Assembly: GCA_964350945.1 (NCBI GenBank)
Contig: CAYGLF010000001.1
Coordinates: 176,083-240,082 of the forward strand
DNA length: 64,000 bases
Direction: 5' to 3'
From: an uncultured bacterium
GTDB taxonomy: Bacteria; Chlamydiota; Chlamydiia; Chlamydiales; JAAZZY01
A program made the translations under genes and the position numbers. Positions 61,916 through 62,344 of this stretch are shown here, in pieces (position 1 is the stretch's first letter; each line of letters opens with the position of its first letter). Below the pieces are notes generated by a model. The model saw only the letters and a list, made by a program, of their open reading frames with translations. It was not told the DNA's origin and did not search any database.

Positions 61916-62344
61916 TTATTTTTGATTGTAGAGCATTTTAAAATGGTCTATCTCATTTTGGAGTTGTGAGACTAAACCTGCATCAACAGAAGCTTTTACT
62001 TTTGCACACAGCTGTAAAATTTTAAAAGCACTACTTAGTTGCTGAGGGAACTGACTCTTACTGGGATCCAACCTTTGCTGTAAAAAGTAAAAGGTGATCG
62101 TATTGGCCAACCGGTTAGCATACTCATCTTTTAAAATGACAGCCCGAACTCGTTGGTTCAACGTAAGCGCCACATCCGCATCGCTACTTTTGATTTCTTT
62201 AATTGCTTTACTGAGTGTCTCTATATCCTGCTCTAAAGAAGCAAACTCTAAGTCATCATGATAAATCCCACAAGGCAGTTGACAGTGTGCTGTCAAAGAA
62301 AGTGGAGCCATCACAAAGAGGCAAAGGGCGATAAAAAGTCTCAT
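61916..62344 (-). CDS. sodN: nickel-containing superoxide dismutase with Sec-type signal peptide
   Basis: MRLFIALCLFVMAPLSLTA / HCQLPCGIYHD. The H-C-x-x-P-C-G-x-Y 'Ni-hook' (nt 62261-62287) follows directly after an A-x-A-like cleavage site. The mature length of ~123 aa fits NiSOD. Confidence 0.8.
   Translation of the reverse strand: MRLFIALCLFVMAPLSLTAHCQLPCGIYHDDLEFASLEQDIETLSKAIKEIKSSDADVALTLNQRVRAVILKDEYANRLANTITFYFLQQRLDPSKSQFPQQLSSAFKILQLCAKVKASVDAGLVSQLQNEIDHFKMLYNQK

Follow-up and report, generated by a model that had tools for sequence, protein, structure and literature searches.

The 64-kb window analysed here, a stretch of 64,000 nucleotides from the genome of an uncultured bacterium of the Chlamydiales, carries close to its end a gene of the sodN type that is predicted to encode the precursor of a nickel superoxide dismutase (NiSOD). 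A preliminary description of this DNA had placed the open reading frame (ORF) at 61916-62344 and had left its strand unstated. The location was correct, and the ORF was found to lie on the minus strand, where it runs from an ATG start (62344) through 142 codons to a TAA stop. It is flanked by a gene for tRNA-Leu and a gene for an SNF transporter, both of which had been named as its neighbours and were found again here. The N-terminus of the precursor reads MRLFIALCLFVMAPLSLTA↓HCQLPCGIYHDD, in which a leader of 19 residues directly abuts the sequence HCQLPCGIY (here and below, the arrow marks a cleavage site). The GC content of the window was 39%, and the nearest relatives of this sodN were found in metagenome-assembled genomes of Chlamydiae. 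These relatives, the conserved gene order that they share with the window, and a DUF818 'Chlamydia CHLPS' protein mark the window as chlamydial.

The protein matched the Pfam family Sod_Ni (PF09055) over residues 18-141 with a score of 78.9 bits, compared to a gathering score of 25, and with E = 6.2e-22, and a chance match was thus ruled out. The AF2 model, for which 21 homologues were used, had a mean pLDDT of 87.7 and contained four long helices (residues 25-53, 59-91, 99-118 and 122-140) after a less confident N-terminus, with pLDDT > 90 across most of the body. When the model was compared to the PDB with Foldseek, the best matches were structures of Streptomyces NiSOD, with a target-normalised TM of 0.79-0.84 and an rmsd of 1.7-3.5 Å. 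In NiSOD, the nickel ion is coordinated by the amine and the imidazole of His1, the amide and the thiolate of Cys2, and the thiolate of Cys6 (summarised in PMC10685849). A phmmer search against the PDB aligned residue 20 of the query with residue 1 of mature Streptomyces NiSOD (1Q0D, 1T6U); the codons for His20 (62285-62287, gtg on the plus strand) and Cys21 (62282-62284) were checked by hand. In the alignment of the 21 homologues H20, C21, Q22, P24, C25, G26, I27 and Y28 were invariant, and all positions of the Streptomyces hook that are linked to catalysis (His1, Cys2, Pro5, Cys6, Gly7 and Tyr9) were invariant as well. The onset of conservation was abrupt at His20, and upstream of it only Leu17 (-3) and Ala19 (-1) were near-invariant columns. 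The 49 homologues that were found in a word-indexed search all carried HCQ[LMI]PCGIYHD. The assignment of the protein as a NiSOD is supported by the profile, the hook motif and the predicted fold, and on these grounds nickel binding and superoxide dismutase (SOD) activity would be expected.

The leader is laid out like a Sec signal peptide, with n-, h- and c-regions. The n-region, M-R, contributes the one Arg and is followed by an h-region of 17 residues that are all uncharged; in the c-region, Pro occupies -6, Leu -3 and Ala -1, and His follows at +1. Past the hydrophobic core of the protein, Ala19↓His20 was the sole position that agreed with the -3/-1 rule; the alternative cuts VMA↓P and PLS↓L were discarded with Pro at +1 and Pro at -3, respectively. 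A start at the internal Met12, giving a leader of 8 residues, was also rejected, as the homologues conserve the Met-Lys/Arg start and the hydrophobic core but not Met12. The alignment of the 21 homologues showed leaders that vary in sequence yet keep the physico-chemical layout. Almost all of the 49 homologues began with Met-Lys/Arg and had a long stretch of hydrophobic residues and Ala/Ser at -1, and a basic n-region with a hydrophobic h-region was kept in 45 of the 49. We also scored 176 relatives, namely those with leaders of 15-40 residues, and found A, S or G at position -1 in 169 and L, A, V, I, S, G or T at position -3 in 173. A Tat signal peptide was rejected, given the single Arg in the window leader and a Tat-like motif in 0 of the 176 relatives. 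It is very improbable that the hydrophobic leader stays uncleaved and serves as a membrane anchor, or that the protein is a lipoprotein. A hydrophobic N-terminus may function as a signal anchor, and a Cys lies two residues past the predicted cut, but an uncleaved leader would block the nickel-ligating amine of His1 and leave the conserved hook pointless, and the residues at -1 and -3 in the relatives speak for cleavage. The leader also does not fit a lipobox, since His separates the site from the Cys in LTA-H-C, and a lipobox-like string was present in only 2 of the 176 relatives. A second predicted signal peptide in the window (53551-54513, ending ...QALRA↓E) likewise has Leu at -3.

With canonical SodN of Streptomyces and marine cyanobacteria, which is matured by the peptidase SodX, the protein shares the Pfam family, the H-C-x-x-P-C-G-x-Y hook and the four-helix bundle, as well as the need for a cut directly before His1, with Ala at -1 and an aliphatic residue at -3. 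The hook differs in residue 3, which is Gln and not Asp, and in residue 8, which is Ile and not Val. To compare the leaders, relatives were scanned with one genome per species, and the best 80 of 111 loci were taken, of which 78 had leaders that could be scored. The control consisted of 80 loci from metagenomes that were of the canonical actinobacterial type, and in these 78 leaders were scored. The signal-peptide type had a median leader length of 22.5 aa compared to 15 aa in the canonical type, a median best 8-residue Kyte-Doolittle mean of 2.63 compared to 1.08, and a median longest uncharged run of 18 compared to 5. The leader in the window had a length of 19 aa, a longest uncharged run of 17 and a best 8-residue mean of 3.27. 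A leader rule that combined an uncharged run of at least 10 with a hydropathy of at least 1.8, and that is crude and not a calibrated predictor, was passed by 78/78 loci of the signal-peptide type and by 1/78 canonical loci. Canonical SodN thus has a short, charged and non-hydrophobic leader and an adjacent sodX (74/80 loci), whereas the window protein has a 19-aa leader that resembles a signal peptide and no sodX nearby; the predicted compartment is the periplasm for the window protein and the cytoplasm for canonical SodN. The preliminary description had called the protein a NiSOD, had put the hook His at residue 1 of the mature enzyme, and had read the leader as a Sec-like n-h-c peptide that is unlike SodX propeptides and ends in an LTA↓H site for signal peptidase I, and the analyses above agree with it on each of these points.

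This design is widespread. A profile of the 21 homologues was searched against 1.84 billion protein representatives at 50% identity and yielded 1030 proteins with E <= 1e-3, of which 524 had E <= 1e-10. A hook of the form HC[Q/E]xPCG together with a signal-peptide-like leader was present in 143 of the best 150 representatives, and most of the others were truncated. Because so many of the best representatives share the design, the window gene is seen as an ordinary member of a large branch and not as a chlamydial peculiarity, and a signal-peptide-like leader is the norm across the large HC[Q/E]xPCG branch of the Sod_Ni family. Among the best 80 of 111 loci, the chlamydial hosts were many Parachlamydiaceae, Simkania and Waddliaceae. 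The other hosts were Pirellulales and Phycisphaerae/Sedimentisphaerales (Planctomycetota), Verrucomicrobiota, Lentisphaerota/Victivallales, Pontiella, Desulfotignum and other Desulfobacterota, Ignavibacteriales and Nitrospirae. Every named host in this set belongs to a diderm lineage. When a search was seeded with Streptomyces SodN, the matches listed were near-identical proteins of Streptomycetaceae, nearly all from Streptomyces, with no intermediate lineages among them. C-terminal His-rich tails (HDHDHDH and similar) were found in 24 of the 176 relatives, mostly in long forms of 184-205 aa from Parachlamydiaceae (proteins P0020, P0025-P0049; e.g. loci L004, L008-L034), and are absent from the window protein. 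These tails resemble those of nickel-handling proteins and may aid nickel capture in the envelope.

The canonical loci have an S26-like gene that abuts sodN, is divergently transcribed and carries the motifs GPSMxPTL and GDN...S.D. A SodX hidden Markov model (HMM) was built from 54 actinobacterial genes adjacent to sodN, and matches with E < 1e-5 were counted as positive. The model was positive in 74 of the 80 canonical loci, and the remaining loci were short contigs. In the window and the 80 loci of the signal-peptide type (1.28 Mb, 8854 stop-to-stop ORFs) there were 0 matches; with the filters off the top score was 9.7 bits, for an ORF of 58 aa. When the 58 window ORFs that encode 100 aa or more were all scanned against Pfam, neither an S24/S26 peptidase nor a known nickel transporter family was found, and Fe/Mn SOD and Cu/Zn SOD were absent too. 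The absence of an S26-type gene, claimed earlier for the adjacent genes, thus extended from the next-door genes to the full 64 kb. Among the 141 immediate neighbours of sodN genes of the signal-peptide type, no peptidase or nickel-transport family was common to at least two in the Pfam scan, and BLAST clustering of the neighbours revealed lineage-specific synteny only, with no nickel or protease partner. Examples of this synteny in Parachlamydiaceae are genes for a small septation-like protein, a CBS-domain protein and a cysteine desulfurase. The Pfam counts among the 141 neighbours were 21 for NUDIX, 8 for rubrerythrin, 8 for pyruvate:ferredoxin oxidoreductase and 2 for AhpC, and the rubrerythrin and AhpC neighbours fit a role in oxidative stress. 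In anaerobic Planctomycetota (Sedimentisphaerales, Pirellulales), sodN lies between the genes for rubrerythrin and pyruvate:ferredoxin oxidoreductase (8 loci each; L051, L056, L060, L062, L066, L073-L075 and others), and AhpC is a neighbour in 2 loci. Such a neighbourhood points to oxidative stress as the setting of an exported SOD in anaerobes.

The reading that we favour, with a probability of roughly 70%, is that the NiSOD precursor is exported via Sec, cut by signal peptidase I and loaded with nickel outside the cytoplasm. The 19-residue leader would act as a cleavable Sec signal peptide, and the housekeeping signal peptidase I would cut after Leu-Thr-Ala at the periplasmic face of the inner membrane to make His20 N-terminal. 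Because the amine of His1 is a nickel ligand, the hook could close only once the leader is cut, and nickel would bind after that step. The cut by signal peptidase I is made on the outer side of the inner membrane, which would put metal loading in the periplasm; hook loading and folding would occur there or further out. The mature four-helix-bundle enzyme would then remove superoxide outside the cytoplasm, for example superoxide that the host cell or the respiratory chain of the bacterium itself produces. Neither a dedicated SodX peptidase nor a cytoplasmic nickel importer would be required, the latter because with loading in the periplasm nickel need only reach the envelope. The preliminary description had deduced a nickel supply in an intracellular bacterium, and this can now be narrowed: the periplasm would need nickel, but the cytoplasm need not receive it. 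What we infer here is that the protein is exported, where exactly it is cut, that it binds nickel and has SOD activity, and where it ends up. A comparable role is filled by SodC, the periplasmic, Sec-exported Cu,Zn-SOD of Gram-negative bacteria, which clears superoxide outside the cytoplasm. The role expected for the window protein is alike, whereas fold and metal are unrelated.

Parts of this route have been realised elsewhere. A Streptomyces NiSOD fused to the PelB signal peptide was released by osmotic shock of E. coli, in whose periplasm it had been produced, and gave the coloured nickel enzyme after reduction and addition of NiCl2, with His1 produced by Sec export and signal peptidase I in the absence of SodX (PMC10685849). 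By analogy with this standard laboratory construct (pET-22b-pelB-NiSOD), the route via Sec and signal peptidase I to His1 would be feasible in principle, and pelB-NiSOD appears to be an engineered version of what the window gene may do naturally. The construct differs in being artificial, and its nickel was added in vitro after reduction with tris(2-carboxyethyl)phosphine (TCEP), so that it says little on nickel loading and thiol protection in a native periplasm (PMC10685849). The planctomycete Sod_Ni protein WP_230780104.1 (Roseiconus lacunae), whose signal peptide was used in a 2025 'signal-strapping' study, has a Sec-type signal peptide that ends in A↓H right before the nickel hook (PMC12537917). 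Compared to this planctomycete type, the window protein is of the short chlamydial form (142 aa), has Leu at -3 and has no His-rich tail. The algal ubiquitin-NiSOD is similar in that SodX is replaced by a general cellular protease that cuts exactly before His1, and different in that a ubiquitin module is removed by deubiquitinases inside a eukaryotic cell with no membrane translocation (PMC6332867). Our literature search found no paper that characterised a native signal-peptide NiSOD (export, cleavage, activity) or a chlamydial NiSOD. Signal-peptide NiSODs are already recognised, and the window gene adds an unsurprising but solid member of that branch.

A number of observations weigh against export and periplasmic maturation. 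The apo-NiSOD from the E. coli periplasm required TCEP before nickel could be inserted (PMC10685849), so that the two cysteines of the hook may be at a disadvantage in an oxidising periplasm; holding them reduced is the main problem for a native periplasmic NiSOD. The leader rule was also passed by 13 of the 58 window ORFs, cytoplasmic enzymes among them. Leu was found at -3 in 46 of the 49 close, mainly chlamydial, homologues, with Ala or Val in distant members, and this conservation is tighter than signal peptidase I alone demands. At the level of the genome, the absence of SodX covers the 64-kb window only. The last two points also bear on whether the leader could instead be a propeptide that is cut by an unlinked SodX-like S26 peptidase, with the enzyme in the cytoplasm as for canonical NiSOD, which we consider quite unlikely. 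The near-invariant -3 Leu in the chlamydial group could reflect a specific protease, and the search of the organism's own DNA for SodX spanned 64 kb. In addition, some sodN-bearing cyanobacteria are without an adjacent or detectable sodX (PMC8346466). SodX and signal peptidase I share a peptidase family, and the canonical site is also V/A-x-A↓H, so that the cleavage site alone cannot discriminate between the two. However, a basic N-terminus followed by an uncharged hydrophobic core of 17 residues would engage Sec or SRP, in contrast to the canonical leaders with their median run of 5, no SodX-like ORF was present within 10 kb in the 80 related loci compared to 74/80 in the canonical set, and the Pfam scan found no S26 domain in the window.

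Two further points that weigh against the Sec route to an active NiSOD concern the enzyme itself. The NCBIfam sodN equivalog TIGR02753 gave a score of 36.1 bits, which is below its cut-off of 90 and places the 142-aa protein in a divergent branch of Sod_Ni and not among the close orthologues of characterised SodN, and Asp3 of characterised NiSOD is replaced by Gln. The protein still belongs to the Sod_Ni family, but the same function as characterised SodN is not certified by TIGR02753; together with the Asp3 replacement, the low score means that identical chemistry is not guaranteed. Both points would also be in line with an exported His-Cys-hook protein that is not a SOD and that binds nickel or another metal, such as copper, for periplasmic binding, buffering or delivery. 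The C-terminal His-rich tails of the 24 relatives, many of them long forms, are typical of nickel-handling proteins, and a signal peptide followed by His1 is often seen in secreted proteins for metal binding and transport (PMC12537917). We nevertheless regard such a function as unlikely: all hook positions tied to catalysis are invariant, the entire four-helix body is conserved and matches NiSOD, the informative neighbours are oxidative-stress genes and not metal transporters, and the window protein itself has no His-rich tail.

If the precursor is matured by Sec export and signal peptidase I, the consequences reach beyond one gene. The general secretion machinery most likely replaces SodX across the branch found in the Planctomycetes-Verrucomicrobia-Chlamydiae (PVC) superphylum, Desulfobacterota, Ignavibacteria and Nitrospirae, and the enzyme and its nickel loading would in that branch be placed outside the cytoplasm. 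For metal biology, this would mean that two thiolate ligands must stay reduced, and nickel be inserted, in an oxidising compartment. The interest lies in the branch-wide independence from SodX and the probable envelope function more than in the single gene. Planctomycetes and Chlamydiae were reportedly listed among the carriers of sodN by Dupont et al. 2008 and Schmidt et al. 2009. In reviews and genome surveys SodX has been treated as the NiSOD maturation protease and its absence taken as a possible loss of function (PMC8346466); for annotation, a missing sodX does not equal a dead NiSOD. A comparative genomics study from 2009 scored the Chlamydiae, with 7 genomes, as having lost the use of nickel and cobalt completely (PMC2667541), and the many chlamydial Sod_Ni loci would, by their sequences, contradict complete nickel loss for environmental chlamydiae. 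The Chlamydiae, once scored as nickel-free, would then have a nickel enzyme, which could defend against superoxide from the host.

The signal-peptide branch also bears on the origin of SodX. It is possible, but in our view doubtful, that the signal-peptide form is ancestral, with an original NiSOD that resided in the envelope and owed its His1 to signal peptidase I, the SodX system being derived, and the Chlamydiae using host nickel in the envelope only. The actinobacterial and cyanobacterial SodX with its short propeptide would then be an internalised copy of the secretory step, in which SodX would be a paralogue of signal peptidase and the propeptide a leader that lost its hydrophobic core. 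If this were true, envelope-only use of host nickel would explain the unseen nickel importer in Chlamydiae.

The features of sodN and its surroundings are collected in Table 1. The first base of the tRNA-Leu(tag) gene directly follows the stop codon of sodN, with a 0-nt spacer (window 61834-61918). The same abutment was found in two related loci, L001 (10430-10514) and L002 (10421-10504), with proteins that are 55-60% identical; in L004 (10490-10585), with 43% protein identity, the spacer was 9 nt. No terminator-like site was found between sodN and tRNA-Leu, and a scan for promoters and terminators around sodN gave nothing above the shuffle expectation. Because the 0-nt spacer recurs in relatives and a terminator-like site is absent, sodN and tRNA-Leu are probably co-transcribed, which suggests that the 3' end of the sodN mRNA would come from 5' processing of the tRNA (RNase P). 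The gene order SNF-sodN-tRNA-Leu-MFS was kept in L001 and L161, and SNF-sodN-tRNA-Leu in L002; the SNF symporter has a conserved position and no functional tie to nickel or maturation.

Table 1. Positions of sodN, its parts and nearby genes in the window
Feature	Position	Strand	Evidence and remarks
sodN-type gene, 142-aa NiSOD precursor	61916..62344	-	Stop codon 61916-61918; ORF list, Pfam, AF2, Foldseek
Predicted Sec signal peptide MRLFIALCLFVMAPLSLTA, codons 1-19	62288..62344	-	Leader statistics, homologue comparison
Nickel hook HCQLPCGIY, codons 20-28	62261..62287	-	His20 is the putative residue 1 of the mature protein
Four-helix-bundle body, codons 29-142	61919..62260	-	AF2 helices; structural match to 1T6U, 1Q0D, 3G4X
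tRNA-Leu(tag)	61834..61915	-	ARAGORN; Rfam tRNA 59.9 bits
SNF-family sodium symporter, upstream neighbour	62413..63840	-	Pfam SNF 170.5 bits; 68 nt from sodN
RING-finger and IQ-motif protein, eukaryote-like E3-ligase features	57167-57982
DUF818 'Chlamydia CHLPS' protein	58072-59172		Pfam
Two adjacent paralogues, no assigned function	59169-60128 and 60109-61128		33% identical

Between tRNA-Leu and the gene for an MFS transporter, the window contains a stretch of ~4.7 kb (57167-61784) that is missing from the syntenic loci L001 and L161. It carries five ORFs, of which the fifth encodes 139 aa, and looks like an effector islet inserted beside a tRNA gene. Chlamydiae pass some Sec-dependent proteins beyond the periplasm. 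With a chlamydial organism, as indicated by the DUF818 CHLPS protein and the closest relatives, and with sodN adjoining an effector-like islet, the enzyme might after Sec export and cleavage be passed onward by type II secretion or in vesicles to the inclusion lumen or the host cytosol. This seems improbable, as free-living Planctomycetota, Desulfobacterota and Ignavibacteria share the design, so that host targeting is not needed as an explanation, and the islet is absent from relatives that keep sodN.

Further from sodN, three tandem ORFs (467, 320 and 372 aa) at 52054-55665 are mutually paralogous and have no Pfam match. L001 and L161 also carry this tandem family, and in the window signal-peptide-like starts were seen in the first two ORFs at least. 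At 42800-44830, ExbB/TolQ-like and ExbD/TolR-like genes are followed by two small ORFs. Because the N-termini of these small ORFs end in the lipobox-like strings LYSC and TSGC, the region looks like an envelope cluster of the Tol-Pal type.

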